Source of the DNA: Candidatus Abzuiibacterium crystallinum
GTDB taxonomy: Bacteria > Omnitrophota > Omnitrophia > Omnitrophales > Abzuiibacteriaceae
Length of the DNA: 64,000 bases
Assembly: GCA_002787155.1 (NCBI GenBank)
Contig: PCVY01000064.1
Coordinates: forward strand, 10,475-74,474
Direction: 5' to 3'
In this document: positions 1 through 23,738 of the stretch, in pieces
Numbering within the stretch: the first letter of the stretch is position 1
Layout of the letters: each line of letters starts with the position of its first letter
Notes under the pieces: generated by a model
What the model was told of the DNA's origin: nothing
The model's database searches: none
The model's input: only the letters and a program-made list of their open reading frames with translations
Position numbers and translations under genes: made by a program

Positions 1-3000
1 CAGAAGTTTTATGGAGCGCTTTACGTACAGCAGGTATGCTGGATGATGAAGGCCGTCCGACTGAACAATTCAAGAAGTTAAGAGTGCAAATGCGTTTTGA
101 CGGATCTCCTGAACATGTTCAGGCAGTTCTAAAATTGGGCATTCCGGATCAATTTAAATGGTTCCAAAATGACATCATTCGGATGTTGGATGATGCCGGT
201 CGTTCAGAGTTGCGTATCAGCGAAATGGAAGCTTTTCGTGATGAGGTGGAAGAGACAGAAAAGTGGATGAATAGTGACCGCTTTCAAGGTATCAAGCGTC
301 TTTATTCAGCGCGCCAAGTGGTGGAACAGCGCGGAACCATTAAAAAGGTTTATCAGGTGGCACATGACGGAGCTGTCGGAATGTATGCGCGCTTGCGTGA
401 ATTATTTGCTAATCGCGAAACCAACACTACTTACGGGCCTTATTCAGGCGGCCAGATTGTGACCATGAAGCGTTTAATAAAAAATCACATTGTTTATTTA
501 GGCGGTTGGGCAACTTCTGCGCAAGGGGATGACACCGAAGAGCCCGGCGCTGATTTAGCCAGTTATCCTTTAAGCCGTGTTCCGCTTGAAGCGGCTCGTT
601 TGATTCGGGCATTGCTGAAAGCCGATGGCAGCCAACAATATGAGCGAATGCACATGTCTGAATCAGAGCGCAACAAAACAGCCGCATTTGATTTCAGACC
701 TTGGATGATTGCCGATGCGGATACCGGTCACGGCGGGGATGCACACACGCGTAATTTGATCAGGCGTTTTGTGGAAGTGGGCGTGCCGGGTTATCACATT
801 GAAGATCAAAAACCGGGATGCAAGAAATGCGGTCATCAGGGCGGCAAAGTTCTCGTTTCAATTGAAGAGCACATTAAACGCTTAAATGCAGCGCGTTTTC
901 AGCTGGATGTGATGGGTGTGCCGGGTATCGTTGTATCTCGCACGGATTCAGAAGATGCTTCGTTTTTGGATAACAATAGTGACGAACGCGACCACAGTTT
1001 TATTTTAGGAGTTACTAATTTAAATGTTTTGGAGTACAAATTACTGACACTTGCTATTCAAAAACGCTTTTATGATTTGGGTGTTACCACGATCAATGGC
1101 CATGAACTTTATGGTATTACAGATGCGCGCTATCAGGAAGCTATGCAATGGCTCAAAAAACAAGGGCTCTTAGATCAGATTGATGAATTGGTTAAAAGTG
1201 TTGATATGAAGGACAAGGCTAGCGACAGTGATGAAAAAGCCTTGGATAAAGCGACCGCGCTGATGCATGAGAAATGGGTTGAGGAAGCAAATTTAAAAAC
1301 ATACGGGCAGGCAGGTGCTGATGTGATGGCAGAGCGCATCGCAGCAGGCGAGTCGTTCGATATGTCTGTTGAAGAATGGCTCTCTTTTACCAAAAAAGTA
1401 TCCAACCAAGAAGCCCGGGCCAAAGCAAAAGAGCTTGGCATTGAAGTGAGTTGGGATTGGGAATTGGCCCGAACCCCCGAAGGTTACTATCAAATTAAAT
1501 CCGGCATCGAATACGCCATTCACCGCCAGCTTTATTTTGCACCGTTTGCGGACATGCTTTGGATGGAAACCAAGACTGCCAATTTAGAGGAAGCACGCCA
1601 ATTTGCCGAAGGTATTCACGCCGTTTTTCCCGACAAAATGCTAGCCTACAATTTATCGCCTTCCTTTAATTGGGATACCACCGGCATGACGGATGAGGAA
1701 ATGCGCCAATTTCCCGTCGAACTTGGAAAGCTGGGGTATGTTTTTAATTTTATCACTTATGCCGGACACCAAATCGATGGTTTGGCAGCTGAGGAGTTTA
1801 CGCGTGCTTTTATCAAAGATGGCCCCTTGGAACTCGCGCGCGTCCAGCGTCGATTTAGGCTGCATAAATCCCCTTATACCCGGCCACAGAAATTGGTCGG
1901 GGGCGCCATTCAAGATGCAGCGCTCATGGCTTCCACAGGCCGTACGGCTGCTACCAGAGCCATGGGAGGGAAGTCGACTGATAAACAGCATCAAAAACCA
2001 ATTGAATTACCGACTTCGCTTTTAGATGGCTGGCTAGAAACGTGGGTAGAAGTTAACCAATATCCCACAGGGCCTCTCACCGCAGAACTTCAGGCAACTT
2101 TTGATAATCCAGGCGAGTTAATGCTCAATGTTTTTGATCGGGAATTCCAAAGAATTGCCTCAATTATTTTTCGCGATGAAACTGATCGAGAAGGAAAACA
2201 TAATTTATTCATTAAAGATCAGCTCACAGAAGAAGTCTGGCGGAACAAACGCCTCACTACCTTGATGCATTTGTTTTTAATCAAGCGTTTCAAAGCGGAT
2301 ATTGTCAATTATATTCGTCCCACCTTGGCTAACCAAACCATGGCCCGGAGAATGATGAGTCTGGGTTTTTATGTGGAAGCGGCAACGAATGGGGAAGCTA
2401 ATTTAATCATGAGTGCCCACGTCAATATGATGGCAATTGATTCCTTAATTCAATCTGACAAGGCGCTGACAGATTTTATTACAAGGAAAGCTGATGAAAA
2501 ACTCTTGATCACGCAACGAGCTGAACAATTGCAAGCCGATTTGAGCGTGAAACAACTGGAATTAACCAAGGCACGTTTAAATTCTGCGAAAGATGTAGAT
2601 ACCATCACGCAATTGGACGCCGAAGTACGCGAGGCTCTGCGCGCGCTTGATGAGTTTGTTCAATTGGCGGGAGAGCTTGAAGAATTAAAATCAGACGTAT
2701 CACAAACGCCGGCAGACCAAAGGCAGTCATTAGAAGACAAAATTCTAGACATTCGTACCCAGCTTGGTTTAACTGAGCATGCAAGGGGTGAAGCGGTTCA
2801 TTCAGAACTTCGGGAAGAGAAGGTCGAAGTGTCCGGCACGGGAAAACCTGCAAAGGAAAAGGTTGATAATCAATTAAGCATACCCTTTAAACAGCTGCCG
2901 CCCGAACAAAAGATAGAACTGTCCCGCGGCGGAGTCGTTACCGTCAAACAAGCACGGGCCGTTCAAGCTTTGTTGACAAAACTTTTAAGGGAGGATATCT

Positions 3001-4820
3001 CAGCAGTCATCAATCTGCAAATTCTGGCAGAAAAGGGCAGTCATGTGCCCATCAACGAAATACCTGCTGCCACAGAAGGCCAAGCGCCTCAAAAAGTGGT
3101 AGCGGAAGACCAAGTGCAAGCACTGGAAGCAACTAAGTTGGTGAAGGTAGAGCGCGAGAAAGGCGGGAGAGTGACAGTGACTATGCCAACTGTCATTCGA
3201 GCGCTTATCCTTTCTATTTTAAGCGGCGCCCATGTATTTGAGTACGAAGTTGTCCGCGATCCGCGTAAGGGTGCAGGCACGGTTCAAGTGACGGCTCAGC
3301 CAGGTAATGGCCGCCTCGAAAGCAAAACAGCTGCTCTTGCTCTCAAAACTTCACCGGTGATACCGAACGTATCGCCTGAAGTCACAGAAGACGGAGGACT
3401 TTCCCTTGCCGATGCTGATGAACAAGCAGAAAAAGTGCCTGCAAATGCCATTGATTTTATGGCGCTTCGTCAAAGCGTTGCAGATGCTGCTATTCAAATT
3501 ATTATGCAAGCCCATTCCAATAAAGGGGCAGTGGATGACAATCAGCTTCACGTTACCTTTGGGGGTAAAGAAGTGGTTCATGTGGTGTTGCCGGAAAGTT
3601 TATTGGAGTTTGATGATACGTTTGCGAGGGACGCACAAAGGGCAATCGGCGACAAATTTAAAGCGCATGGCGGCTTACTGTTTACCCTAGAGGTTCAAGG
3701 GACAATTATTCATATTAGGCATATCGATGGGACGGGGACGGTCACAAATGATTCCGGAACCCCTGTGGTTGGTTTGCGCGTGGTGGGTGTTAAGAATGAT
3801 GGGCGTTCCGAACTTCGTTTCAGCGATCTTTTAGCTGATCATTTAGAGGTTCTGAAAGGCACCAAAGCACTCGCTGAAAAACAATTGCGCCAATTTAATG
3901 CATTACCCCAAGGTCTTCAATCTACTCAAGAAGAAGATTGGCTGCGCACACAGCTGGGGGAAATTAACGACGCTATCGCTAAATTACTTGCTACCGAGCG
4001 CACCGAACTCCGTAATCATGTCACGCACCCGGAGCATCGGTTTGCAGAAAAGCTACGAATTGGAACCGAATTGGAAGCACTGCAAATGCAGTTAGCCGGA
4101 TTACATCAAAAGCCGGAAAGTGAATTAACTGACACTGAACGGGAGACCATCCAGCAAATTGGAGATGCCATTAAAGCTTTGCAAGATTCTTTAGACCAAC
4201 TTTCAGCTCAGGGCCGCTCGGTTCCGAAACATGCCGAGTTAAGAATTGATTCCAGCACAAATGATATTTCTGTGTTTTTAAGAATCAGTGATCAAATCAA
4301 AACCATGTTTGCACAAGATGAAGAAGCCCACGAACCACAGAGATTGATCGGATGGGTGAGTGGCGTTGTTAATCAATCTGTTAACAGTCAGTCAACCACG
4401 GCCATATCGGAATCGCGTGTTGGGTACGCTGTTTCCCGTGCGGTGGCCTTTGATGAAGCGATGGTCTTTATTTTGGCAGAATTAGCGCGTCATCAAGCTG
4501 CGCCCATCGTCATAGTGACAGATTTTGACACGGATTTAGCCATTGTGAATCAAATCAACGCTACTTTACCGGAAGGGCGCGAAATTCTAACGGCTTCCAA
4601 CGAAGTGGCGGCCGCTAACTTGTTATGGGCAAAGGGTATTCGAAATAGCACTTATCTCACCAGGGAAGAGTTGGACGCAGTGAGATTAAAAAATGTGTTT
4701 AGCCAAATTACCATACTCACAGAAGCAGCCATGAATCGGATTAAATCAGGTATCGATGGTTTAACAGAAATACTGAACCAAGCTGCTCAAGCATATAACA
4801 CCATCGTCACTGCTGTTTAA
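1..4820 (+). CDS. isocitrate lyase-domain giant fusion protein, 5'-partial (ICL catalytic domain with a long-form insertion, then a ~930-aa C-terminal extension of unknown function)
   Basis: The ORF track reports 36..4820, but the frame is open back to nt 3 with no stop, so the gene probably begins upstream of the window. The ICL active-site signature K-K-C-G-H ([12 protein letters not shown]) lies at about nt 823-837. The N-terminal region has a eukaryote/ICL2-like pattern ([37 protein letters not shown]). [19 protein letters not shown] and FNFITYAGH motifs are present. There is a long insertion, typical of long-form ICLs, between the SRTD and NLSPSFNW blocks. The ICL domain ends around nt 2000. 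The remaining ~930 aa have coiled-coil stretches and no domain I recognise. There is no malate synthase signature. Confidence 0.85.
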
Positions 4821-4875
4821 TTTTCAGGCCAGCCGGCGTCTTGCGAAAAGGATGGTTCTGCTTTCGTAAAAAAAC

Positions 4876-4907
4876 TTGGGGTCAGGTCCCGGACCTGACC
4901 CCAGGGG
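4876..4907. repeat. REP-like palindromic element copy 1 (GGGGTCAGGTCC-C-GGACCTGACCCC)
   Basis: Perfect 12-bp arms around a single central base, core 4878-4902, flanked by CTT...AGG. It lies 56 nt after the stop of the upstream giant gene. Confidence 0.85.
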
Positions 4908-4925
4908 TTGAAAGAAGACAAATGA

Positions 4926-7900
4926 ATGAAACAAACAGGTTTTGGTTCCAAGTTACTGTCACTTACCCTCAGTTTTAGTTTATTTACCACCTGCTCCGTT
5001 GGTTTTACCGATCCGTCACTTATCTTGGGGTCAGGTCCGGGACCTGACCCCAGGCACCTCACGCGCACCAAAGCAGCCGGTCATTCTCTTTCCGTTATTC
5101 ATCAATTAACCGCGCTTAACCCAGAAATTGCGCGCGATCTTTGGCGCCGTCAACAACTGCCTGCTGCTGTTACGCGGTTTATCGATTTATCTGTCAAATC
5201 CGAACTCAGAAGTTCAAGCAATGACACTTGGGGTCAGGTCCGGGACCTGACCCCAGGAGTTCATCGGGCGGAATCATCTTTTTCGTCTAAAATGAAACAG
5301 GGATCATCCGTCAGGACAGTTATTTTCCTGGCTGTTTTGAGTCTAACAGTTTATCTGGGTTTTTTGCAAGTGGCACGCTTTCCAAGCGGCAACGTAAAAT
5401 TGGATTGGGCGGCAGCCTCTTTGATGCCTGTGATTGTGACGGGTGTTTTTTTGGTAGGCTTATTTCGAAATCATTTATTATCTTCCGGTCGGCTTTTTTC
5501 AATCTCGATTTTGGCCGCTGCTCTTTATGGTTGGACAACTGTTCTCGCCAAGCCGGTTCTTAATTTCCCGATGACCCAAGTGGGTCCGCTTCCTTACATG
5601 ATCACGCTTTGGGGAGCGGCTATTTTGCTCCTGCATTATGTTTACGATCAACTTTTTCGTATGAGTGGTAAAGTCAATGGGTCAACCAACACTTCATTCA
5701 CGAGTAGCTGGTTGGCACGATTGATACCACTCTATACTGATTTCAAAATTCTTTTCAAACTCAAACGAGCCACTTCCCGAAACGGAGCCGATTTAACCTC
5801 CACACAACAAATGTTAACTATGAATCGCCGTGCGGGTTTTCTCAGGGGAACTTTTTGGCATCTCGGACCTTTTGCGCTGGCCTTGTGGGGGTCACTTTTT
5901 TCCCAGACATTGGGCGCAGGGACACTTTATTTAGCACTTTACCAGGGCTTAAATCCAAATGTTTATGGTGTGATGGCCCCGATTGGTATTGTGCTCTTAC
6001 CGGGCCTGTTGGCTGCTTGGTGGCTTGGGGAAAAGTTCACAGCGCGCAAATTGATCGGCTATGCCATGGTCTTTTCAGGCATGGCGGCCATTTCAGCCGT
6101 GAGTTTAACGCAAGCGTCCGTTCAGGTTCCATTCGCAGCTTTAGCGCTTGGTCTATTATCCGCTGTTTTTTATGGATTACGCCAGATATTTCATAAACAG
6201 TTGTTTAATAAAAATCTGGATGCCTTGTCAGCGGGTGAGCATGCGCAACTGGAGATGGCGGTTAATCGATTAGGCTATTTTTTGGGGACGGTTACGATGA
6301 TTGGCATCGCCGTCATTCAGGCGATTGTGGGGAATCAGCCGATCGGGTGGTTTACTTTTCTGGTACCTTCAATGGCTATTTTAACAATCGCCAATATGTT
6401 TGTCTGGACGGGAATGTGGGTTCTGGTCTTTTTTGTTACACGCCATATCCACGCTTCTCGATTAACGCCGATTTTAGCTACTTTTCCGTTCTGGACCATG
6501 CTCTGGCAGTGGGTTGTGACCGGTCAATTAAACCCAAGTTTAATTGCAATCGGCGGACTTGTGCTTGCAGGCGGCATTTTGGCATCTTATCAAAAGCCCA
6601 CGCAGGTTGACGGTGGTAGCCGATCGGAATTACGGACTTCTGCCGGGATGTCATTGTTTTCCAAACCCCATTTAAGAACCATTTATATTATTTCACACGT
6701 TATCCTTTTTGGTGTGGGACTTTTGGCTTTTCCGACCCTGTCACTGCTGGCATACGAATCAATTCATATAGGGGCAGTGATTAATTTGATGTTTTTTGCC
6801 AGCTTTGTTTTGATTGGTAATGCGTTCATTCATCAGATTTATCAATGGTATGGTTATCGTTTCAATTTTAAGAAACTTGGCGCCGCCATCACATTGAGTC
6901 TGGTGTCGGGTGCGGTCACTCTCTTGGGCGTGATGCTGATTAATGAGCTATTCCCGCTGGGGCAGGAGTTTGCGGGAACAACCTTTAGATTACCATTGGG
7001 ATTTGGACGCGTTCAAATTGATTTTGCACACCCGTTAATTGCACATACGGTGGTTGCGATACCGCGTGTTCTCATGGCGATTGTTTTAGAGGCTTTAAAC
7101 TTGTTGCTATTGGATTTGCCTTTTCGCTTTTATCGTGACCAGCTTAAAAGCCGGCACGAAGGAACGCAATCAAATTTGAAAAAACGAGAAGCATTTTATC
7201 TTTCACGTTTGTATTCACTGGCAGCTTATTATTTTATTTTGGTGTGGCTGCCAAATTACACTTCTGTTTTGTTCATTGGTTTAGTTTTACAACTGCTTCG
7301 TTTGTTTTTACATGTGTCGGCTAATCGAAAGTCTTATTGGGTAAAATCTTGGTTCATACAAAACCACCGTACTTTGCTCGTTATTTTTCCGCTTTTCTAT
7401 CCTTTCGTCAAACTAGCCCGTTCGTTGCATTGGCTGATAACGCCGAAAGAAACGATTAGCGTAGAGGCCAAATCACGTGTTCTGGCAAGCGCTGTGTGGC
7501 ATGCTTATGAACAATACCAGAAGGAACTTCAAGCACTCAATGACAGGGCATTATCGTTGTTTGAACAAGGCGATTGGGCTCACCTGCAGGTAGATTATCA
7601 GCGCCGGCTTGATTTATATAGCCAATCAATCGAAAATGCCAGCCTGGAAATTAGCCGACAAATTGGGAATGGCTTTATCTCAGAGCAAACCATTTGGGAT
7701 CAAGCACGCACGCATTTTGATGTGTTGGTGATTAATCCTTTGGATAAAAAGTTAGCGGATGCCTTTTTTTATACGGTCAAACGGCGCTTTATTCCGGGAA
7801 CTGAAAGCGATATTCGTTTTATTGCTGAAGACGTCCATCTGTTTAGAGGTTCTGAAGACGTGCTGGAACCGGTATTTACCTCTTACAAAAGAAAAGTTTC

Positions 7901-10900
7901 TACCCGGGCAGCGGTAGAAACCATCCTGAGTCATTATGGTTTTAAAATTCCTTATGAAGATCACGAGCGGGATGTGAATCACATTACCGACCTGGTTAAT
8001 AGACAATTACACTTAGAAGAAGGTGAACCAAATGCGAAAGTTGAGCGTTTTGAAATGCTCAATCCCATCTTTACACGATTTAAGAAAATTTACATTGTCG
8101 GAAGAATTCGAGTGAAAGCCAATACCATTCCTTTGGTATTGGTTTTTGACAACCACAGCCAGAAATTAGTATTGGATCAGGTGGTGATGGAGAGCCTGGA
8201 TGTGAGCCGCTTGTTTGGCTTTACACATTCTCAATTTACGGTGGTGACGGATAACTACCAGGCATTGGTTAACTTTCTTCATGAATTGATGCCGCGCAAA
8301 CATCTTTCGCAAATTTATCGGGTGATCGGCCAATACAATTTGGCTAAGGCCGAAATTCTAAAGGATCTATTCAATCTGATTCGTAAACGGCAAGAACGTT
8401 TTCGCTTGAGTGAGGGAGTGAAAGGTAAAGTTGTCATCAGTTTTTCGCTTCCATCTTCTGACATGATGATTAGAGTGCTTAAAGATAGGCCTGATAAACC
8501 TTTATCACCTCGTGAATTCGAAGCAAAACACTACTTTGCCCGCCATGTTTATAAAGCCGGACGCATCGTAGAAATGATCGGCTTACGAAATGTCAGATTT
8601 CCGAAAGCGGCGTTTGAAGCGGATGTTCTTAAAGAATTATTGGAAAAATCAACAGATCCTGAAAACGGTATTGTCGAAGACGGAGAGTTTATAATTTTAA
8701 AACGTTTTTTTGTCCAAAGATATGTAATCCCTCTAGACATTTTCTTTCAACGGGAGAAAGATCCGGAGATCAGACGCCGCATTCTATTGGATTTAGGTCA
8801 ATTGCATAAAGATTTGGCCAGGGTGAATATTTTTAATGTGGATTTTCTCCCTCACAATCATGGTGTTATTGCAGCAGGAACAGCCAATATGCGCGTTGTT
8901 TTATTTGACCTTGATGCCATTGAATTGTTGACCGATCAAAACTTTCTGAGCGTACCCAGATATTCACGGCCTGTTGATGACGGGGACTTTGATTTGGATT
9001 ATTTTATGTATGGCGGTGATGCGGAAGATATGCGAATGGCGGCGCCCTCGAATGATCAGTACCCCGAACAATTCGAACTCTTAAAAGATATACCTCTTGA
9101 CTTAGTAACCGAATTTATGAGAGTTCATGGTGATTTAATACAGCCGGATTTTTATCTTGCCACCCAACGTGATCTCTGGCAGCAAGCTGATGAATTAGTG
9201 CGCACTTTTCCGTATTCTCTGCTGGCGCGGCGGAGAGCCAACCCCATTCACTCAGAATTGCGGCATTTTTCTTTAGCTGAAAGACTCCAAACGCAGGAGT
9301 TCGTTGTGACAACCGAATTGGATGAACCCGACATGACGCCTGATTACTGGAAATTAATCGACCAAGGCTGGGTGCACGGCATGACCATTACGGATTTACC
9401 TTTGATTTCTAAGGTAGAAGATTTATTGAAACGATACCAAGCAAAGAAAACCATTCGCCAAAACCCGTTTGCCATTTTACACCAAACAACAGGTGCAATC
9501 GTCACTGTTGCCGCCGGTGCGCGTTTTCGAGGTAATATCAGGAACCGCATTTTAAGAATGGTGGAAGAGAATGCGGGCGGGATTTTAGCGGTAGCCAGCG
9601 GTGGTTTGATCAGGCGCTTGGCAAGGGTATTGTGGCTAGAATGGCTTCTGCCCATGAATTCATTTAAAATTTTACGAATGGTAAAAAAAATGAAACAAGC
9701 AGGTATCATTCCTAAAGATTTTCTTATCATGGGTGTTGAAAATCCTTTAATTGGGGACCCCGTTACACAGGTTGACCGGCTGGAGGAGAAAATCGAAGCC
9801 GGAGCAGAAGCCATTATGACCCAGCCGCCGCTTTTATGGCATCAATTTGAAGCTTGGTGGCGAGAAGTTGAGAAGAGAGGATTAAACCGAAGGGTGCCTA
9901 TCATTATTGGTTTTCCGTTTATTACTTCACCGGCAAATTTAAGATTTTGGTATTTTCTGACAGGCGTATCTTCACATCACTTAGAAGCACAAGCTTTGCT
10001 AAGTGAGTTTGAAGAAAAACAAAATGAAGGCGCAGAAGCGTTTGCCAAGTTTCGCCAAGAATTTTCAGAAGGCTTACTAAGAAAAATACGGACATTGCCG
10101 CATGCAGCTGGTATTCATCTTTTTCCTTTGAAAGGCATGCCGCAAGTGATCCCAACGCTTAAAGCCAATGATTTAAGGCCGCCTTTACACCATATCCGAA
10201 GGATTGACCGGCTCATTGGTTTATATGATGAACTGGGCGTTCAGCTGGATATTGAAAATGTGGCTTACAAAGATGAGCATGTCAAGCACCTTGAAGGTGT
10301 CTTGTCTGTGATCTACGGCGTGATTAAGAACTTTGATGATAGACCTAAACGAATAACTATTAACCGAGTTTTTTATAAACAGCATTTTTTAGATAGTGTG
10401 ATGGTAAGAGATATCGTTGGTTCTTCTGATTGGGAACTGACCATCGATTTAAAATCATTTGAAAGAGATAAACTATTTAATATCAAACGCTTAAGACATC
10501 AAGTACAGCAAAAGATCTTAGATCGCAAACGTCCTGAAAGAAAAAAGGAAATTTTTATTACAGCGGGGCCATTTAAACGGTATGCGCATAGTTTGATACG
10601 GCAATGGAATGAAGCTTTTTGGCAGCATGTCAAAGCCATGATGAAAGCATTAAAGCGGGATTATCGAGATACGATCGCCGGTTCGCCTGATACGGAAGCG
10701 CCGATTCTTCATTACAATGCGGAACGGTTTTTGTTGGAAGATCTTTTACCCCTCCGCGAACAAGAAAAACAAACGGGAGTGCCTCCTCAGCCGGTGGCGT
10801 ATGTAGAAGGCGGTGTGGCAAGCATTGATTATGCGCGCGGATTTGTGGATCAATTAAAGAAATTGGCAGAAGACCGCGGTTTGGCCGATTTGCTTACCAA

Positions 10901-13517
10901 CGTCACTTATGTGTTAGCTGACCTTTCTTCTTCCATTATTGAACAAGCCAAACAGGAATTAGGCAAAAGCCGTAATGGAATCAAGTTTGACATGTTGCAG
11001 CTGGATGCCGCCAATCCAACCCAAGCACTTGAGAAATATCAAGGTCAAATATTGCGCGGTCATCTAACCAATATCTTAGACAACTTGCCGACCGATTATT
11101 TTGTCCGCCGAGAAACAAAGTCATACATTGTTGAAAGCAGGCCGCGTTGGTCGAAACCTGAAATCATTGCTTTGGCGCGGCAATATCAAATCAAAGAAGA
11201 TGAATTGATCAAGGATTTGCAGAATTTATCCGAAACGGGTGTTCAACATTTCCTGGGAAAATACAGACAATCTTTTCATCGAAGTGCCTATCGGACACCC
11301 GAGCAGTCGGATGAGTTATTCTACCGATTTTGGTATGACTTGTATGGCAATAAAGACAGGCCCGGAACGGGACTGCGGCTAGAAGAACAGCTGGTACCCA
11401 TTAACGATCTTGAGCAATTTCATTTTCTATCTCAAACCGAACTTTCGGGAGCATTGCTAGCCGAAGCCTTAGATGAAGTAGAAGGCGACATCCGTATGCC
11501 GCTTTCTAATCATGCCATTGACGCGGTCTTGGCTTGGCAAAAGTTGCTACATCCGGACGGCGTGATCGAAATCTTTGATATCGTGGTTGATAGATTTGAG
11601 GATTTCCAAACCAAAGAAAATCGACCGAACAAAACAGCAAAATATGACGGCTCGGCCGTTGATTGGATCAATGGAGCACTTTTGCGCGTCATTGGCAAAG
11701 CTCTCATTCCGGGTTTTCACATGACGGTCGAAAATCTAGGCCGTTTCGGTAAACGCTTCAAAACCATGTCCTTGGTCGAAATTCGCCAAAATCAAGAAGT
11801 CACCGTTAAACCGCGAGCAGAACTACGCGTATCATCGGTCCAGGATCGATTAATTGATTTAACCGCTGAAGCGGAAGCGCAAGGGATTGACTTAGATGCT
11901 ATTGCACAAACGCTGAAACAGGAAGACTACTATGTTGAAGACTTGGTGCGCGAAGTTTTGCGGGATGCCATTCAATTTCATCCTTCGGCCGATTTGCTTA
12001 CAGCCGACAATCTCAAAAGGTTGGTTTCTTTACTTGAAATAATTGGTTTGAAGCGGATTGAACCGGTTTCATTTGTTCGGACGGATGACAAAGGCGTTCC
12101 ACTCATGCGATTTTCGCCTGAAGTCGCCGAATTTATGCGTGAGCGAAAGCAAAAAGGGTCATCATTAATCGTGTCGTACCTGGTGTTTAAGCGTGACGGC
12201 GTAGAAGCGGTTTTACAACATGACCCAACTGCCTCTCAAATTGCAATCAACATAGCGCTTTCACCCAATTATGGGGCGTCCAATACGTTGTCGCAAAGCC
12301 AACATGAGTTTTTTGATAATCGATTAGCACCACAGCTTGACTGGCTCGAAGAGATCAATGAAGCACGGCGAGAAATATCTGATTCTAAACTTAAACCCGT
12401 GGGCGTGAGTGCTTATTTAAGTAATGCATGGGGTGCTCAGGATTTAACGATTGATTTTGATGACGAAAAAGCATTTACCGGCTGGCTTGAAGAAATCAAA
12501 GGTTGGATACGAAAGTTTCAAGCGAAAGAAATCGAGGAAGTGGTGTTAAGCGATACCACCGGTGAAGCCAGACCGGCGGATATTACAAAACTATTTAGCG
12601 CTCTCATTCAAGATACGGAATTTAAAGATATCAAATTTGCTTTTCACGGACATGACAGCGGTAACGGTCTTTTAAATGTTTTTGCCGCGCTAAAGGCGGG
12701 TGTTCGGATGATTGATACTTCCATTGGGAATTTAGGCGGCTCGCCTTTCTCTGAAACCACACATACCTATAAAGGACGGAAACCAGGTAACATCACGACC
12801 GAGGATTTAATTTTTTTACTCAAAGCGAAAGGCGTTCCGACGAATATCGATTTTGATCGTCTTTTAGAAGTTGTTCGGGAGTTTGAACGTATTTTGAGTG
12901 ATAATTTTGTTGAAAATACCCGCGTGTTGGGTTTGCACCACTTGCCATTGGCAGAAAGAGAAGATCTATTTAAATTGATGGGACCAAAGGCAAGACGTTC
13001 AGAACTGAAAGCAGTAGAACCAGTTTTAACACAAGCGCCGGCAGCTTTTAGTAATCGTTTACGTTCAGAACTTCGATTGATGTTGGTGCCGCCCTCAACC
13101 GTGACGGCACAAAACATTGGCTTGGCATTCGGCAGGCGAGACACCTTTGAAGTATTAACGCCGGTTCTTTTGCAGCAATTGGCAAGCGCTGGAATTCCTG
13201 TGGTTGTGATTGCGCCCACATCGATTGAAAAAGGCGTCATTGATCAAATCAATCACCAGACGGCAAATGAACATGCTATCTTGATTGCTGAGAGTCTGCA
13301 GGAGGCAGCCTATCAATTAAAAAGGCAGCAAATAGAAGAAACCCGCTTTGTCAGCACCGAGCGCTCAGACCTTGATCTTGCGGCACCTTTTTTTAACGTG
13401 GTTGCTTACTTGCCCAAAGAACAGCTTACCGGGTGGGTATTGTCACAAGTGAAAGCAATTGCCGTCATGATGCAACAATCCCGCGCTAATTACGAAAGAC
13501 TCTTACAAGCCGCTTAG
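4926..13517 (+). CDS. giant multidomain membrane protein (2863 aa as called): EamA/DMT-like permease modules + AceK-like isocitrate dehydrogenase kinase/phosphatase domain + MetF (MTHFR)-like domain + Rossmann methyltransferase-like region + HMG-CoA-lyase-like DRE-TIM metallolyase domain
   Basis: This is an uninterrupted 8.6-kb ORF. The first 122 codons contain two REP palindromes, so the true start is probably the in-frame ATG at 5292 (MKQGSSVRTVIFLAVLS...). About 5292-7400 encodes many TM helices with EamA-type module ends (GEKFTARKLIGYAMVFSGMAA; TGQLNPSLIAIGGLVLAGGILAS). About 7490-9270 encodes an AceK-like domain (FEQGDWAHLQ vs E. coli FEQADWHAVQ; NIFNVDFLPHNHG...VVLFDLDAI vs NIFPGDMLFKNFG...VVFYDYDEI; LARRRANP vs YRRRQRF). 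About 9460-10180 is MetF-like (KIEAGAEAIMTQ...VPIIIGFPFITS...AGIHLFPLKG). About 10795-11740 is Rossmann methyltransferase-like. About 12160-12960 is HMGL-like (FKRDGVEAV; FHGHDSGNGLLNVFAALKAGVRMIDTSIGNLGGSPF...TEDLIFLLKAKG). Confidence 0.8.
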   Translation: MKQTGFGSKLLSLTLSFSLFTTCSVGFTDPSLILGSGPGPDPRHLTRTKAAGHSLSVIHQLTALNPEIARDLWRRQQLPAAVTRFIDLSVKSELRSSSNDTWGQVRDLTPGVHRAESSFSSKMKQGSSVRTVIFLAVLSLTVYLGFLQVARFPSGNVKLDWAAASLMPVIVTGVFLVGLFRNHLLSSGRLFSISILAAALYGWTTVLAKPVLNFPMTQVGPLPYMITLWGAAILLLHYVYDQLFRMSGKVNGSTNTSFTSSWLARLIPLYTDFKILFKLKRATSRNGADLTSTQQMLTMNRRAGFLRGTFWHLGPFALALWGSLFSQTLGAGTLYLALYQGLNPNVYGVMAPIGIVLLPGLLAAWWLGEKFTARKLIGYAMVFSGMAAISAVSLTQASVQVPFAALALGLLSAVFYGLRQIFHKQLFNKNLDALSAGEHAQLEMAVNRLGYFLGTVTMIGIAVIQAIVGNQPIGWFTFLVPSMAILTIANMFVWTGMWVLVFFVTRHIHASRLTPILATFPFWTMLWQWVVTGQLNPSLIAIGGLVLAGGILASYQKPTQVDGGSRSELRTSAGMSLFSKPHLRTIYIISHVILFGVGLLAFPTLSLLAYESIHIGAVINLMFFASFVLIGNAFIHQIYQWYGYRFNFKKLGAAITLSLVSGAVTLLGVMLINELFPLGQEFAGTTFRLPLGFGRVQIDFAHPLIAHTVVAIPRVLMAIVLEALNLLLLDLPFRFYRDQLKSRHEGTQSNLKKREAFYLSRLYSLAAYYFILVWLPNYTSVLFIGLVLQLLRLFLHVSANRKSYWVKSWFIQNHRTLLVIFPLFYPFVKLARSLHWLITPKETISVEAKSRVLASAVWHAYEQYQKELQALNDRALSLFEQGDWAHLQVDYQRRLDLYSQSIENASLEISRQIGNGFISEQTIWDQARTHFDVLVINPLDKKLADAFFYTVKRRFIPGTESDIRFIAEDVHLFRGSEDVLEPVFTSYKRKVSTRAAVETILSHYGFKIPYEDHERDVNHITDLVNRQLHLEEGEPNAKVERFEMLNPIFTRFKKIYIVGRIRVKANTIPLVLVFDNHSQKLVLDQVVMESLDVSRLFGFTHSQFTVVTDNYQALVNFLHELMPRKHLSQIYRVIGQYNLAKAEILKDLFNLIRKRQERFRLSEGVKGKVVISFSLPSSDMMIRVLKDRPDKPLSPREFEAKHYFARHVYKAGRIVEMIGLRNVRFPKAAFEADVLKELLEKSTDPENGIVEDGEFIILKRFFVQRYVIPLDIFFQREKDPEIRRRILLDLGQLHKDLARVNIFNVDFLPHNHGVIAAGTANMRVVLFDLDAIELLTDQNFLSVPRYSRPVDDGDFDLDYFMYGGDAEDMRMAAPSNDQYPEQFELLKDIPLDLVTEFMRVHGDLIQPDFYLATQRDLWQQADELVRTFPYSLLARRRANPIHSELRHFSLAERLQTQEFVVTTELDEPDMTPDYWKLIDQGWVHGMTITDLPLISKVEDLLKRYQAKKTIRQNPFAILHQTTGAIVTVAAGARFRGNIRNRILRMVEENAGGILAVASGGLIRRLARVLWLEWLLPMNSFKILRMVKKMKQAGIIPKDFLIMGVENPLIGDPVTQVDRLEEKIEAGAEAIMTQPPLLWHQFEAWWREVEKRGLNRRVPIIIGFPFITSPANLRFWYFLTGVSSHHLEAQALLSEFEEKQNEGAEAFAKFRQEFSEGLLRKIRTLPHAAGIHLFPLKGMPQVIPTLKANDLRPPLHHIRRIDRLIGLYDELGVQLDIENVAYKDEHVKHLEGVLSVIYGVIKNFDDRPKRITINRVFYKQHFLDSVMVRDIVGSSDWELTIDLKSFERDKLFNIKRLRHQVQQKILDRKRPERKKEIFITAGPFKRYAHSLIRQWNEAFWQHVKAMMKALKRDYRDTIAGSPDTEAPILHYNAERFLLEDLLPLREQEKQTGVPPQPVAYVEGGVASIDYARGFVDQLKKLAEDRGLADLLTNVTYVLADLSSSIIEQAKQELGKSRNGIKFDMLQLDAANPTQALEKYQGQILRGHLTNILDNLPTDYFVRRETKSYIVESRPRWSKPEIIALARQYQIKEDELIKDLQNLSETGVQHFLGKYRQSFHRSAYRTPEQSDELFYRFWYDLYGNKDRPGTGLRLEEQLVPINDLEQFHFLSQTELSGALLAEALDEVEGDIRMPLSNHAIDAVLAWQKLLHPDGVIEIFDIVVDRFEDFQTKENRPNKTAKYDGSAVDWINGALLRVIGKALIPGFHMTVENLGRFGKRFKTMSLVEIRQNQEVTVKPRAELRVSSVQDRLIDLTAEAEAQGIDLDAIAQTLKQEDYYVEDLVREVLRDAIQFHPSADLLTADNLKRLVSLLEIIGLKRIEPVSFVRTDDKGVPLMRFSPEVAEFMRERKQKGSSLIVSYLVFKRDGVEAVLQHDPTASQIAINIALSPNYGASNTLSQSQHEFFDNRLAPQLDWLEEINEARREISDSKLKPVGVSAYLSNAWGAQDLTIDFDDEKAFTGWLEEIKGWIRKFQAKEIEEVVLSDTTGEARPADITKLFSALIQDTEFKDIKFAFHGHDSGNGLLNVFAALKAGVRMIDTSIGNLGGSPFSETTHTYKGRKPGNITTEDLIFLLKAKGVPTNIDFDRLLEVVREFERILSDNFVENTRVLGLHHLPLAEREDLFKLMGPKARRSELKAVEPVLTQAPAAFSNRLRSELRLMLVPPSTVTAQNIGLAFGRRDTFEVLTPVLLQQLASAGIPVVVIAPTSIEKGVIDQINHQTANEHAILIAESLQEAAYQLKRQQIEETRFVSTERSDLDLAAPFFNVVAYLPKEQLTGWVLSQVKAIAVMMQQSRANYERLLQAA
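5024..5054. repeat. REP-like palindromic element copy 2 (GGGGTCAGGTCC-G-GGACCTGACCCC)
   Basis: Same 12-bp arms as copy 1, core 5027-5051, with the same CTT/AGG flanks. It translates as GSGPGPDP in both orientations, which explains the overlapping + and - ORFs in the track. Confidence 0.85.
5227..5257. repeat. REP-like palindromic element copy 3
   Basis: Identical to copy 2, core 5230-5254, and 35 nt upstream of the in-frame ATG at 5292. Confidence 0.85.
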
Positions 13518-13696
13518 AGACGGTCCCCCCCAAGTCTTTTGTGGGTCGTGAGTTAAACAGAAACCATCCCTATCTATTTTTTTCTGACTTGCAATCACTT
13601 AAAAGAGCGTTATAGTTATAATATATTGAAGCCGAACTACATAATCTAATAGACTCATCTTTGGCAGGGTCTCACGCGATCACGAAAGGGGTTTTT

Positions 13697-14698
13697 ATGT
13701 TTAAAAAAGTATACTTACCGGTTCTTATTTTAATCACCATCCTTATTTGTCCTTCTCAGTTACAGGCTGCCAAAGACTCAGGCGATGTGGCCGCTAAAAT
13801 CGACAAAGACGTGATTACCATGAGCGAATTAAACAAAGCAGCCGAATCAGACCTGATGCCGCTTGCTTCACAAATTTATGACATCAAGAAAAAACGGCTC
13901 GATCAAATGGTGGAAGACAAATTGTATGAATTAGAAGCCAAGAAGCAGAAAACGAGCGTTGAAGCATTAAAAGCTGAAATTAATAAGGGCGATGAAGACA
14001 TGAGTGACGATGCGATCGAGGTGTATTATGATTTAAACAAGGCACAATTCGGCAATCGGCCGCTCGAACAAGTTAAGGCTCAAATTAAAAATCTTTTGAT
14101 CCGACGCAAACTTGACAAAAGCAACGATGAATTCTTAGCTGGTTTAAGAAAGAAATACAATGTGGAAGTGATGTTGGAAGAACCGAAAATGGAGTTGGAT
14201 ATAGATGGATACCCTTCACGCGGTCCCGATAACGCCAAGGTGACTGTGGTTGAATTTACCGATTTCCAATGTCCTTTCTGCAAACGGTTTAAAGATACCA
14301 TTGACCAATTGGTAGAAGAATACCCGAACGATGTCAAACACGTTTTTCATCATTTACCGCTTCCCATGCACCGCAATGCCAAAGGGGCACATCATGCCTC
14401 GGTTTGTGCCGACCGCCAGGGTAAATTTTGGGAGATGCGCGAAGTATTATTTAATAATGCCACAGCACTTGAGCGTGAAAATCTAAATAAATATGCCGGG
14501 GAAGTCGGTTTGGATATGGACGCTTTTAGTAAGTGCATGGAAGATCCTGAAATTGATAAATACTTAGACGATGCTGCCAGTTACGCGCAATCGGTCGGAG
14601 CGCGAGGAACACCCACCTCATTTGTGAACGGCACCTTGTTCAGGGGCGCTCAGCCTTATGAACAGCTTAAGCAGGTGGTTGAGACCAAATTAAAATAG
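13697..14698 (+). CDS. periplasmic DsbA-family thiol:disulfide oxidoreductase with an N-terminal chaperone-like domain
   Basis: It has a signal peptide (MFKKVYLPVLILITILICPSQLQA) and a thioredoxin-fold active site CPFC (FTDFQCPFCKRF). The ORF track starts at 13661, but the ATG at 13697 follows a GA-rich RBS. Confidence 0.7.
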   Translation: MFKKVYLPVLILITILICPSQLQAAKDSGDVAAKIDKDVITMSELNKAAESDLMPLASQIYDIKKKRLDQMVEDKLYELEAKKQKTSVEALKAEINKGDEDMSDDAIEVYYDLNKAQFGNRPLEQVKAQIKNLLIRRKLDKSNDEFLAGLRKKYNVEVMLEEPKMELDIDGYPSRGPDNAKVTVVEFTDFQCPFCKRFKDTIDQLVEEYPNDVKHVFHHLPLPMHRNAKGAHHASVCADRQGKFWEMREVLFNNATALERENLNKYAGEVGLDMDAFSKCMEDPEIDKYLDDAASYAQSVGARGTPTSFVNGTLFRGAQPYEQLKQVVETKLK

Positions 14699-14833: not shown

Positions 14834-14877
14834 CTTTCTTTTACGCAAACCTTTTTGTGAAAGCGAGTTACGAAAAT

Positions 14878-19360: not shown

Positions 19361-19600
19361 ATCAGGGATCAGGGATTGGGGGACAGGTGTTAATGCTTAA
19401 TAATTCAGTTTCCTCTACAGGCAGTTTTTATCTTTAAAGTGTGTGAGAAAAGTTACCGAATGACTGAGTCAGTACAACAGGAACGATTAAGAAAAAGTTA
19501 AATTGAATACGCTAGTGCTGCAGTATTATTTTAAAGTCATTTTTTTTGTTAATGGTGATTATGCCGGCCTGATCCCTGATCCCTAATCCCTGTTCCCTGA
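19361..19600. repeat. inverted arrays of the heptamer CAGGGAT flanking a ~180-bp AT-rich spacer
   Basis: The left array, 19361-19385, reads atCAGGGATCAGGGATtggggga. The right array, 19571-19600, reads GATCCCTGATCCCTAATCCCTGTTCCCTGA, about 4 heptads in inverted orientation. The right array abuts the cobO ATG at 19600. Confidence 0.6.
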
Positions 19601-20172
19601 TGAAGTCTCCACAAACCAAACCCAACCGCGATCCCGAAGTCTTAAAAAAGAAAAAAGGTTTAATCCTGGTTTACACCGGAGACGGAAAAGGTAAAACCAC
19701 CGCTGCGCTGGGGGTTGCTTTTCGTGCGCTTGGCTGGGGAATGAAGGTAGCCATGATTCAATTTATCAAAGGGAATTGGAAATATGGCGAAATGAATTCG
19801 GCAAAGCAATTCGGGGGTCACTTTGAACTCATTCAAAAAGGTGAGGGGTTCACTTGGGATACGCAAAACCCTGAACGTGACAAGCAATTGGTGAATGAAG
19901 CATGGGCGCTCTGCCGCGAGAAAATGTTAAGCGGTCAATATCAAGTGCTCATTTTTGATGAAATCAATTATGTCATTGATTATGGTTATTTAGACGTGAA
20001 GGAAGTAATCAAAGGTTTACGCGAGAAGCCCGAGAGCGGCCATGTTATCCTGACGGGCCGCAATGCTAAGAAAGAATTAATCGACATGGCTGATCTCGTG
20101 ACCGAAATGGTTGAAACCAAGCATCCTTTTAAAGATCAGAAAATTCCCGCTCAGAAGGGTATTGATTTCTGA
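19600..20172 (+). CDS. cobO: cob(I)yrinic acid a,c-diamide (cobalamin) adenosyltransferase
   Basis: It carries the P-loop GDGKGKTTAALG typical of CobA/CobO/BtuR-type corrinoid adenosyltransferases. Confidence 0.85.
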   Translation: MKSPQTKPNRDPEVLKKKKGLILVYTGDGKGKTTAALGVAFRALGWGMKVAMIQFIKGNWKYGEMNSAKQFGGHFELIQKGEGFTWDTQNPERDKQLVNEAWALCREKMLSGQYQVLIFDEINYVIDYGYLDVKEVIKGLREKPESGHVILTGRNAKKELIDMADLVTEMVETKHPFKDQKIPAQKGIDF

Positions 20173-20219: not shown

Positions 20220-20267
20220 TTCACTCGCTCAGGATTTATTGAGTCTGAGTTGATCTTTTTAAAATTT

Positions 20268-20425
20268 CAATCCGTTGAGACAAGTGAGGGAAGTGCGGTG
20301 AAAAGCCGCCGCTCCCCCGGAACGGTAAGTGCAACGAAAGCGATGGAGTTCCACTGCTCGTGGTAACGCACGAACGGGAAGGAATCGTGACTAGGAAAAA
20401 GCACAAGCCCGGAGACCTCAGTCTT
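20268..20425 (+). promoter_or_regulatory. cobalamin (B12) riboswitch aptamer
   Basis: It matches the RF00174-type consensus blocks: GGGAAgtgcGGTGaAAagCC...GCtCCCCcGgAAcGGTaag, the B12 box CCACTG, ...GGGAAGGaa...GCCcGGAGACCTcag. It is followed by hairpins, including AAAATTGGCA/TGCCAATTTT at about 20441-20468, and sits upstream of the receptor RBS. Confidence 0.8.
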
Positions 20426-20564
20426 GACTAACCAGTGGTTCGGCTTGATTAAAATTGGCAACTGCCAATTTTAATCTTCGCTCACCAAGTGTTGAGCGAA
20501 CTTACAAAGTAAGTGAGTCGAAGCACCAGTCTCTCGTAAACTTTACGCGGGTAAAGGAGCAGAA

Positions 20565-22880: not shown

Positions 22881-23286
22881 ACATTTATGTTTTATTAGTC
22901 TTTACTTGGCTTGGTTTGGCATTGGTTTCTTCTTGCCGAAACTAACCATGGCCATTGTCTTTGCTTCCGAAGGGCAAGCGGTGTCAAACACGTTTGTAGA
23001 AGCGGTTGTGATGTCCGATGAACAGCGCCGTTATTTTGATCCCTTACCGGTGTACCCAACCATATCACGGCGTACGGGTGAGGAAGGGCGCGTGGTGATT
23101 GAATTTACCATCTTACCCAATGGCAATACGGCTAATCAGTATATTGTTCAGTCTTCCGGTCACGACCATCTTGATCAGGCTGCCTTGGCGGCTAGTCAGA
23201 AATGGCATTTTGATCCGGTCCAAATTGATGGGCATGCGATATCATCTACACGGCGAATCCCTATAGAATTCAAGCTGAAAAATTGA
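22870..23286 (+). CDS. minimal TonB-family energy transducer (TM anchor + TonB C-terminal domain)
   Basis: The C-terminal domain pattern is YPTISRRTGEEGRVVIEFTILPNGNTANQYIVQSSGHDHLDQAALAASQKWHFDP, with an N-terminal TM helix. It overlaps the receptor gene by 11 nt. Confidence 0.7.
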   Translation: MNFKHLCFISLYLAWFGIGFFLPKLTMAIVFASEGQAVSNTFVEAVVMSDEQRRYFDPLPVYPTISRRTGEEGRVVIEFTILPNGNTANQYIVQSSGHDHLDQAALAASQKWHFDPVQIDGHAISSTRRIPIEFKLKN

Positions 23287-23396: not shown

Positions 23397-23738
23397 ATGG
23401 AAAATACCTCAAAACAGCAAACAGAACCATCAGCCGAGATCCAAGAAGGTAAATTCTTTGCCATTAGCGGCTATCTTTTCGTCCTGTGTTTTGTACCGCT
23501 TTTACTTAAGAAAGACAATAAGTTTGCCCAATTTCATGGAAGGCAAGGCCTTGTCCTGTTTATCTTTGAATTGGCGGCTGCGATTGTTAAATCCGTACCG
23601 GTCATCGGCGATGTTATTTTCTCTTTTGCTTACGTCATCTTTGGCATTGCTTCCTTGATCGGTATTGTCCGCGTGTTGATGAATGAATACTGGGAAATGC
23701 CCCTGGTTCACAACATCGCACGTAAAATAACATTATAA
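23397..23738 (+). CDS. small membrane protein (DUF4870-like)
   Basis: The ISGYLFVLCFVPLLLKKDNKFAQFHGRQGLVLFI pattern is typical of DUF4870 small membrane proteins. It has 2-3 TM helices. Confidence 0.5.
   Translation: MENTSKQQTEPSAEIQEGKFFAISGYLFVLCFVPLLLKKDNKFAQFHGRQGLVLFIFELAAAIVKSVPVIGDVIFSFAYVIFGIASLIGIVRVLMNEYWEMPLVHNIARKITL

Follow-up and report, generated by a model that had tools for sequence, protein, structure and literature searches.

A recurrent R[SA]ELR peptide delimits the modules of giant Omnitrophota proteins and may be a site of endoproteolytic processing

We analysed a 64-kb stretch of DNA from Candidatus Abzuiibacterium crystallinum (contig PCVY01000064.1; hereafter the window), which begins with the genes of two giant proteins, p1 and p2, and we found that a pentapeptide of the form [R>H,K]-[S>A]-E-L-[R] recurs between the modules of these proteins. 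The peptide is strongly enriched, lies at module boundaries, keeps its positions in distant homologues and co-occurs with a leader and a C-terminal domain. That it acts as a module delimiter, irrespective of any cleavage, is in our view very probable, and there is about an even chance that it is also the recognition site for endoproteolytic cutting of a precursor into separate proteins. Leader, delimiter and C-terminal domain together define an undescribed family of modular Omnitrophota proteins.

The two giant genes are located as follows:

1..4820, + strand: giant protein 1 (p1), an open reading frame (ORF) truncated by the 5' window edge, with an isocitrate lyase Pfam match (2.5e-130)
4926..13517, + strand: giant protein 2 (p2), 2,863 amino acids (aa), described from its ORF, Pfam matches and homologue comparison

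Contigs bearing the same genes (L001 and L008; L numbers designate loci and P numbers proteins) place the true start of p1 343 nt upstream of the window, which gives a complete length of 1,720 aa. They also reveal a third giant gene, p0 (2,008 aa; L008:3336-9359), directly upstream of p1, which encodes malate synthase and class I fructose-bisphosphate aldolase. Since p0, p1 and p2 stand in aceB-aceA-aceK order, the Ca. Abzuiibacterium genome carries aceB, aceA and aceK inside modular giant proteins. Full-length p1 consists of a signal-like leader, HSELR, a 107-aa module, RSELR, isocitrate lyase, HSELR, a 335-aa module, RSELR, 65 aa, RTELR, 77 aa, HAELR and a C-terminal module. The layout of p2 is a signal peptide with its leader, KSELR, a module of 10 transmembrane (TM) helices, RSELR, a TM region with AceK, HSELR, a module resembling methylenetetrahydrofolate reductase (MTHFR) and methyltransferases, RAELR, an HMGL-like TIM barrel, RSELK, 22 aa, RSELR and a C-terminal module. 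The AceK-like domain that a preliminary description of this DNA had proposed for p2 is indeed present, with complete regulatory and kinase domains recognized by Pfam. Among GTDB representatives, the closest relatives of the malate synthase part of p0 are Thermoproteales archaeal proteins, at about 28% identity.

The preliminary description had listed seven copies of the peptide, and all seven translate in frame to the pentapeptides it gave. It missed four others (HSELR 2799, RTELR 3999, HAELR 4230 and RAELR 11814). The window holds 11 sites of the form [R/H/K]-[S/A/T]-E-L-[R/K], all within the two giant ORFs:

201..215, + strand: RSELR, 3 residues before the start of isocitrate lyase homology
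2799..2813, + strand: HSELR, new, after the isocitrate lyase domain and its coiled-coil tail
3804..3818, + strand: RSELR, junction of the 335-aa module and the 65-aa segment
3999..4013, + strand: RTELR, new, the sole Thr variant
4230..4244, + strand: HAELR, new, final delimiter ahead of the p1 C-terminal module
5196..5210, + strand: KSELR, closing the p2 leader, with 33 residues between it and the TM module
6621..6635, + strand: RSELR, between the two TM modules of p2, aligned with RSELR of P0124 (95) and P0128 (420)
9249..9263, + strand: HSELR, 12 residues past the AceK kinase domain, aligned with RSELR of P0124 (1026) and P0127 (371)
11814..11828, + strand: RAELR, new, junction before the HMGL-like module, aligned with RSELR of P0127 (1198)
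12996..13010, + strand: RSELK, after the HMGL-like module
13062..13076, + strand: RSELR, 22 residues beyond RSELK and directly before the p2 C-terminal module

The tetrapeptide SELR is found seven times in the two window giants (4,457 aa) against 0.125 expected from composition (Poisson P 8.6e-11), which bears out the earlier estimate of about seven copies against about 0.1 by chance, and this count was reached in 0 of 20,000 shuffles. SELR ranks as the most over-represented of all tetrapeptides in both proteins, indicating that its enrichment survives a look-elsewhere correction. Chance or composition as the source of the motif was rejected on the basis of the shuffles and of this ranking. 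The other 45 ORFs of the window (15.5 k aa) contain no SELR, and their single match to the motif, a KSELK in the shikimate dehydrogenase gene, corresponds to the chance level, as does the frequency of SELR in this local proteome. Two off-frame SELR strings (nt 14862 and 24768) lie outside coding frames and are due to chance. The tripeptide ELR is preceded by [RKH][STA] in 10/10 cases in the window giants and in 0/6 cases in the other ORFs.

The motif had been described as confined to the two giants, which holds inside the window only: p0 carries seven sites, and P0131 (COV74_08640), a further protein of the same genome, carries six. With the six sites of full-length p1, the three giants p0, p1 and p2 contain 19 sites in 6,591 aa, where 0.155 would be expected (P = 3e-33). 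We then considered a set of 23 family proteins, made up of the relatives retrieved by a profile search described below and of genes found in their loci. These 40,453 aa hold 127 sites, about 3.1 per 1,000 aa, versus none in 11.8 k aa of neighbouring non-family genes at the other loci. The 127 sites give the following consensus:

Position 1 (n = 127): R 108, K 11, H 8
Position 2 (n = 127): S 98, A 28, T 1
Positions 3 and 4: E and L, fixed by the search pattern and thus invariant by construction
Position 5 (n = 127): R 123, K 4

Single-mismatch variants are fewer than perfect sites in these proteins (58 versus 127). Conservation does not extend into the flanks, apart from an enrichment of Ser at -1, +1 and +2 and of Pro upstream, and from the absence of Pro at +1 (0/127 sites). 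The flanks in the three giants showed no significant enrichment in disorder-type composition (P = 0.12). A longer hidden repeat around the motif was also considered and rejected, the flanks being unconserved and the modules mutually non-homologous. At the 104 sites for which DNA was available, all six Leu codons, all six Arg codons and both Ser codon families are in use, so that the codon differences first noted between a few copies extend to this larger set. Because all synonymous codons are used and the flanks are unconserved, the motif is selected at the peptide level. A mild codon bias was observed at the sites of L001, L008, L009, L011-L014 and L016: CGT/CGC make up about 76% of position 1 Arg codons versus a 48% background, the motif Ser is AGY in 9/79 sites versus a 32% background, and position 5 codons are near background.

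The sites are placed between domains. None of the 19 sites of p0, p1 and p2 lies inside a homology-defined domain envelope, these envelopes covering 63% of the residues (P = 5e-9), and nine of the 19 are at most nine residues away from a domain edge. In p0, the aldolase Pfam match (1212-1583) is bracketed by the sites at 1201 and 1580, and malate synthase homology stops 4 residues before the site at 932. The isocitrate lyase homology of p1 spans full-length residues 182/189-944 and begins at, or 7 residues after, the site at 182. The AceK kinase domain of p2 ends 12 residues before the site at 1442, and a 10-TM module that p2 shares with P0122 lies between the sites at 91 and 566. Spacers between sites range from 12 to 1,652 residues in the 23 family proteins, with a median of 194, and the shortest (12-22 aa) are too short for a domain. 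In many modules, a TM helix begins 7-20 residues after the motif.

The position of the motif is also conserved. Between homologous modules of only 27-36% identity, it is kept at the same junctions while the adjacent residues have diverged. Three junctions of p2 are conserved in this way in P0124, P0127 or P0128: p2 566 corresponds to P0124 95 and P0128 420, p2 1442 to P0124 1026 and P0127 371, and p2 2297 to P0127 1198. Thus, the expectation that orthologs would keep the motif positions was confirmed. p2 unites modules that other loci encode as individual genes. Synteny with the window was found at L012 and L019, where the giant genes are likewise followed by a DsbA-like gene and ribBA. The malate synthase, isocitrate lyase and AceK proteins of L019 are much shorter and consist of a leader, the enzyme and the C-terminal module with motifs between them, and the extra modules of the window proteins are inserted at the junctions that the L019 proteins mark with motifs. 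One 107-aa module follows the leader of p1 in the window and is appended to the end of malate synthase in L019; it is bounded by motifs on both sides in p1, and by a degenerate ASEFR upstream and RSELR downstream in L019. Sequence comparison thus points to modules shuffled between genes as motif-bounded cassettes.

The last 140 residues are homologous between p1 and p2, and these C-terminal modules are located as follows:

4398..4817, + strand: conserved C-terminal module of p1, about 140 aa, from p1/p2 homology (19.7 bits), profile search and alignment
13089..13514, + strand: conserved C-terminal module of p2, ending in ..LLQAA, from profile search, alignment and an AlphaFold2 (AF2) model

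A profile of this module was searched against 1.84 billion representative proteins and retrieved 20 proteins, in all of which (20/20) the module is at the C-terminal end. Canonical sites number 2-16 per protein in twelve of the 19 new ones, where fewer than 0.15 would be expected, and one of the retrieved proteins, P0131, belongs to the genome of the window. A second homologue search with the C-terminal-domain alignment gave no match, and neither the leader nor the C-terminal module is matched by any Pfam or NCBIfam model. The AF2 model of the p2 module (pLDDT 88.6) is a five-stranded Rossmann-like alpha/beta domain followed by a long terminal helix, and the motif directly before it lies in a low-pLDDT stretch devoid of secondary structure. 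A fold search of this domain against the PDB returned generic Rossmann-like matches only (E > 0.01) and no specific relative. The alignment of the C-termini indicates that family proteins end in ..Q-x-A. Members with a further canonical motif inside this domain are P0126, P0135, P0138, P0140, L012 and L014, and the p2 equivalent is TSIEK (13215-13235, ..APTSIEKG..).

The proteins of this family measure 0.5-5.7 thousand amino acids (kAA), and every full-length member has the same organisation: a Sec-like signal peptide, a leader of about 50 aa, a motif, a cargo, a motif (with repetition of these units) and the C-terminal domain. The cargo consists of ordinary enzymes, among them malate synthase, isocitrate lyase, class I aldolase, AceK, an HMGL-like type and PGM, of polytopic transporters, or of domains of unknown nature. 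At L014, a single stop codon appears to divide one family gene into two ORFs (2187-4790 and 4794-9818), of which the first has a leader without the C-terminal module and the second the C-terminal module without a leader. Two distant giants, P0122 and P0123, were scanned for analogous recurring motifs and none was found. The profile search gave no support to an initial impression that the C-terminal domain of the family also forms the C-termini of these two.

At the N-terminus, p0, p1 and p2 each start with a signal-peptide-like segment and a 45-60-residue leader that terminates in the first motif. The p2 leader is the following feature:

4926..5195, + strand: p2 N-terminal leader, a Sec-like signal peptide (MKQTGFGSKLLSLTLSFSLFTTCSVG/FTDP) and about 60 aa up to the first motif

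The leaders of p0 and p1 are homologous and that of p2 is weakly homologous to the p1 leader; comparison across the family shows that the p2 leader includes the family element ..RFIDLS... With signal peptides judged by inspection, the first motif is at residue 52-95 in every full-length member. In relatives, the signal-peptide cleavage region reads S-x-A/Y-[PS]-D-[IV]-P, the slash marking the presumed cut. Glyoxylate-shunt and glycolytic enzymes are found behind Sec-like signal peptides (window 1-215 and 4926-5195; L008:3336-3560). p0 and p1 contain no TM segment besides the signal, and a naive topology puts their enzymes outside the cytoplasm.

Several features expected of processing sites are found here, namely a position between modules, a strict consensus with free flanks, and conserved positions in homologues. 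An endoprotease is suggested by a pentapeptide that is strict while its flanks vary freely, by a site at the end of every leader, by tandem spacers smaller than a domain and by the exclusion of Pro at +1. According to this reading, a Sec-targeted precursor would carry several enzymes or transporters as motif-separated modules, and a site-specific endoprotease would recognize the pentapeptide and release the modules as separate proteins. The cut might occur after the final Arg, since Pro never follows this residue. The conserved leader and C-terminal domain would direct the targeting or the processing of the polyprotein.

Domain scans detected no protease domain in p0, p1 or p2. A possible candidate is a neighbour, a protein of about 520 aa with a signal peptide, whose gene directly adjoins motif-bearing genes in five loci of other genomes:

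L009:22751-24322: Tiki-like candidate gene
L013:2-1504: Tiki-like candidate gene
L014:9932-11524: Tiki-like candidate gene
L016:9950-11542: Tiki-like candidate gene
L018:8013-10004: Tiki-like candidate gene

This protein carries ..YI(L/Q)DAHVN.. and ..IAGGFHK.., motifs seen by eye. The giants P0122 and P0123, which have no R[SA]ELR-type motifs, and two L018 genes, which have one each, carry the same domain as an N-terminal fusion. The Tiki/TraB-like neighbour is possibly the processing protease. More broadly, we tentatively propose, as an idea that remains doubtful, that long Omnitrophota multi-enzyme ORFs could be cellular polyproteins cut at R[SA]ELR by a dedicated protease, which this neighbour might be.

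Several observations weigh against cleavage or against this candidate. Cutting at the motif is inferred from the anatomy of the proteins. In its simple form, cleavage of an exported precursor accords poorly with cytoplasmic-type enzymes standing behind export-type signal peptides. By a crude count of TM parity, P0140 and p2 have sites on either side of the membrane, which would be awkward for one protease in one compartment. Some adjacent domains have no site between them, such as the TM region and AceK of p2, a junction at which P0124 and P0128 do carry one. Several members also have a canonical RSELR/RAELR within the fold of the C-terminal domain, where strand beta2 meets helix alpha2, and a cut there would destroy the domain. 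As for the candidate protease, its match to PF04187 (ChaN/Tiki superfamily) is sub-threshold (18.9 bits for a cut-off of 27.7; E = 1.6e-3). A Tiki fold was confirmed neither by a PDB profile search with the candidate, which gave no match, nor by an AF2 model of the homologous P0122/P0123 domain (pLDDT 44). A tblastn search with the Tiki-like protein was negative in the window and in L008, its upstream flank, and the gene is absent among the called genes of L011 (same genome), L012 and L019. Finally, the five loci with the adjacent gene are fairly close relatives (61-86% identity), so that conserved gene order could explain the adjacency.

The preliminary description had put phosphorylation first and had added docking or cleavage as a further option, which agrees with the junction anatomy. 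If uncleaved, the motif could be a docking or recognition site through which a chaperone, a scaffold, a targeting factor or the protein's own C-terminal domain organises or folds the intact giant, an explanation that we consider possible although on the doubtful side. It accounts equally well for the strictness, the junction position and the conservation of the motif, it fits the motif found inside the C-terminal domain of several members of a family that always carries that domain, and it has no difficulty with sites on both membrane faces. However, tandem sites 12-22 residues apart and a site ending the leader look more like processing spacers than like binding valency, and the exclusion of Pro at +1 also speaks against docking; moreover, no binding partner was identified, and the model of the C-terminal domain has no recognisable peptide-binding fold. 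A purely structural role is unlikely. In that case the motif would be a helix N-cap and first turn, with Ser/Ala as cap and then Glu-Leu-Arg, opening each module and recognized by nothing in trans, as suggested by the small residues at position 2, by the absence of Pro after the motif, which suits helix initiation, and by the homologous position in the C-terminal domain, where helix alpha2 starts immediately behind strand beta2. Yet helix caps tolerate many sequences, whereas here unrelated modules, and organisms at 27-36% identity, keep five near-invariant positions, and single-mismatch variants are few; ordinary proteins of the same genomes do not use the motif, and spacers of 12-22 residues are not modules.

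The proposal that the Ser residues are phospho-acceptors for the AceK-like domain or for another Ser kinase, regulating the fused enzymes, was not supported, and we regard it as very unlikely. It draws on the complete AceK regulatory and kinase domains of p2 and on the fact that 77% of the sites have a Ser flanked by Arg and then Glu. But position 2 is Ala in 28/127 sites (22%) and Thr in only 1/127, indicating a requirement for a small residue and not for a phospho-acceptor, so that obligate phosphorylation is improbable. In addition, the motif is equally dense in proteins without an AceK or isocitrate dehydrogenase (IDH) domain (P0140, P0131, P0137 and p0), and the sites are at junctions and leader ends, not in catalytic domains. 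AceK recognizes the folded IDH dimer and not a linear peptide. Lastly, the motif could be a DNA-level feature, either a recombination microhomology or an insertion scar left by in-frame cassette shuffling, with no function of the peptide. Modules are demonstrably shuffled at motif boundaries and there is some codon bias (position 1 Arg is CGY-rich and Ser AGY is under-used), but the codon data largely refute this explanation, which we consider extremely improbable: all synonymous codons occur at every position and the nucleotides are unconserved while the peptide is conserved. Furthermore, the motif never departs from the coding frame, the two off-frame SELR strings of the window being due to chance, and a scar under no selection would not have persisted between proteins only 27-36% identical.

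Processing or delimiter sites in modular precursors are already known, and what is new here is the protein family carrying them. The polyprotein systems appear, by analogy, to be the closest functional analogues, and none of them matches in consensus, domain content or host. Gingipain/HagA proteins of Porphyromonas gingivalis, which are type IX cargo, have a Sec signal, modules separated by Arg/Lys and an export C-terminal domain, and are cut into separate proteins. The N-terminal Sec-like signal, the multiple modules and the conserved C-terminal domain are common to both systems. In contrast, the type IX C-terminal domain is a beta-sandwich and the one described here is predicted to be a Rossmann-like alpha/beta domain, any Arg/Lys is used there and a specific pentapeptide here, the cargo consists of proteases and adhesins there and of central-metabolism enzymes and transporters here, and the phylum differs, as does the status of cleavage, which is only predicted for our proteins. 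MARTX toxins of Vibrio have conserved termini and swappable effector modules released by cutting at short inter-domain sites; they rely on their own cysteine protease, which cuts after Leu, contain Gly-rich repeats and, lacking an N-terminal signal peptide, are exported by type I secretion. They share with our proteins the giant modular size, the conserved terminal regions and the interchangeable internal modules, but Pfam matched no MARTX-type cysteine protease or Gly-rich repeat in p0, p1, p2 or their relatives.

In eukaryotes, the Kex2/furin and PEXEL/RxLR/TEXEL systems use a short Arg/Leu motif tens of residues after the signal peptide and a dedicated protease, and in Kex2-type precursors the cleavage site recurs between cargo units. 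The first site of our proteins is likewise within tens of residues of the signal peptide (residue 52-95), as in PEXEL/RxLR, but KR, RxxR, RxLxE/Q/D, RxLR and RRLxx do not match R[SA]ELR, and the cargo there consists of peptides or effectors, whereas it is made of whole metabolic enzymes here. Viral polyproteins are cut by 3C-like or other viral proteases at a short site with a small residue beside Glu/Gln. The similarity lies in one ORF giving many proteins, in short conserved sites and in internal TM segments that set the topology; the difference is that the genome here is cellular, the enzymes are housekeeping ones and no protease is encoded in cis. As to the AceK site of isocitrate dehydrogenase (E. 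coli Ser113), it shares with our motif the Arg-Ser dipeptide, and p2 has an AceK domain, but Ser is not conserved here and the sites lie in linkers and not in an IDH fold.

Giant Omnitrophota proteins forming 'multi-enzyme metabolic clusters' have been catalogued in two preprints (bioRxiv 10.64898/2026.06.07.730766; bioRxiv 10.1101/2023.11.21.568195). Those proteins come from the same phylum, combine many unrelated metabolic Pfam domains in one ORF and mostly have a signal peptide and/or TM helices, but they measure at least 10 kAA, versus 0.5-5.7 kAA here. Term searches of both preprints returned no polyprotein, cleavage, delimiter peptide or leader/C-terminal-domain layout; in bioRxiv 10.64898/2026.06.07.730766 the searched terms gave no motif, linker or processing, and 'C-terminal' occurs once. 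The same preprint reports the glyoxylate shunt as absent from its 176 genomes, whereas aceB, aceA and aceK are carried inside such proteins in Ca. Abzuiibacterium. Literature searches for the motif string and for cleaved bacterial polyproteins yielded nothing relevant.

Giant multi-enzyme proteins are a signature of Omnitrophota, and the delimiter, leader and C-terminal domain suggest that such proteins may be precursors that are cut up. The delimiter predicts exact cleavage sites to be sought in existing metaproteomes and provides a simple sequence rule for parsing giant ORFs into functional units, within a new protein family for which Pfam and NCBIfam have no model. If the proposal is true and giants of 10-150 kAA share the delimiter, their expression logic would be closer to that of viral polyproteins than to bacterial operons, and glyoxylate-shunt enzymes behind export signals would hint at an extracytoplasmic or host-directed action.

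The remainder of the window gives the genomic context. Through exact matches to database proteins, the window is assigned to a metagenome-assembled genome known as Candidatus Omnitrophica bacterium CG11, another name of Candidatus Abzuiibacterium crystallinum (phylum Omnitrophota). Every credible gene of the window reads along the + strand. The GC skew is positive or about zero (of the 32 2-kb intervals, two have values of 0.000 and -0.005), and cumulative GC skew climbs near-monotonically across the 64 kb. This climb and the orientation of the genes indicate that the window lies within one replichore. A phage origin, suggested by the giant ORFs, the single-strand orientation and the steady GC skew, was rejected because megablast against phages was empty and the window is housekeeping bacterial DNA. 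The genes 3' of the giants include a DsbA-like gene, a rib operon with nusB, pyruvate dehydrogenase, ilv/leu, aro, topA and xerC, as well as lipid A and lipopolysaccharide-core genes. Directly 3' of the last giant gene, 13661-14698 encodes a DsbA-like thioredoxin-fold protein with a SurA-like N-terminal region, and the order giant gene, DsbA-like, ribBA-ribH-nusB-ribD is kept in L012 and L019. Further downstream, a 113-aa ORF (23397-23738) had a weak precomputed MamF/MmsF annotation that was not reproduced by a Pfam scan, and 23786-25303 is an ORF for an acidic coiled-coil protein of 505 aa, rich in Glu/Gln, that gave no real Pfam match. A cobalamin riboswitch (72 bits; 20234-20436, + strand) lies upstream of genes for a TonB-dependent receptor (20565-22880) and TonB (22870-23286), and is directly preceded by a corrinoid adenosyltransferase gene (19600-20172).

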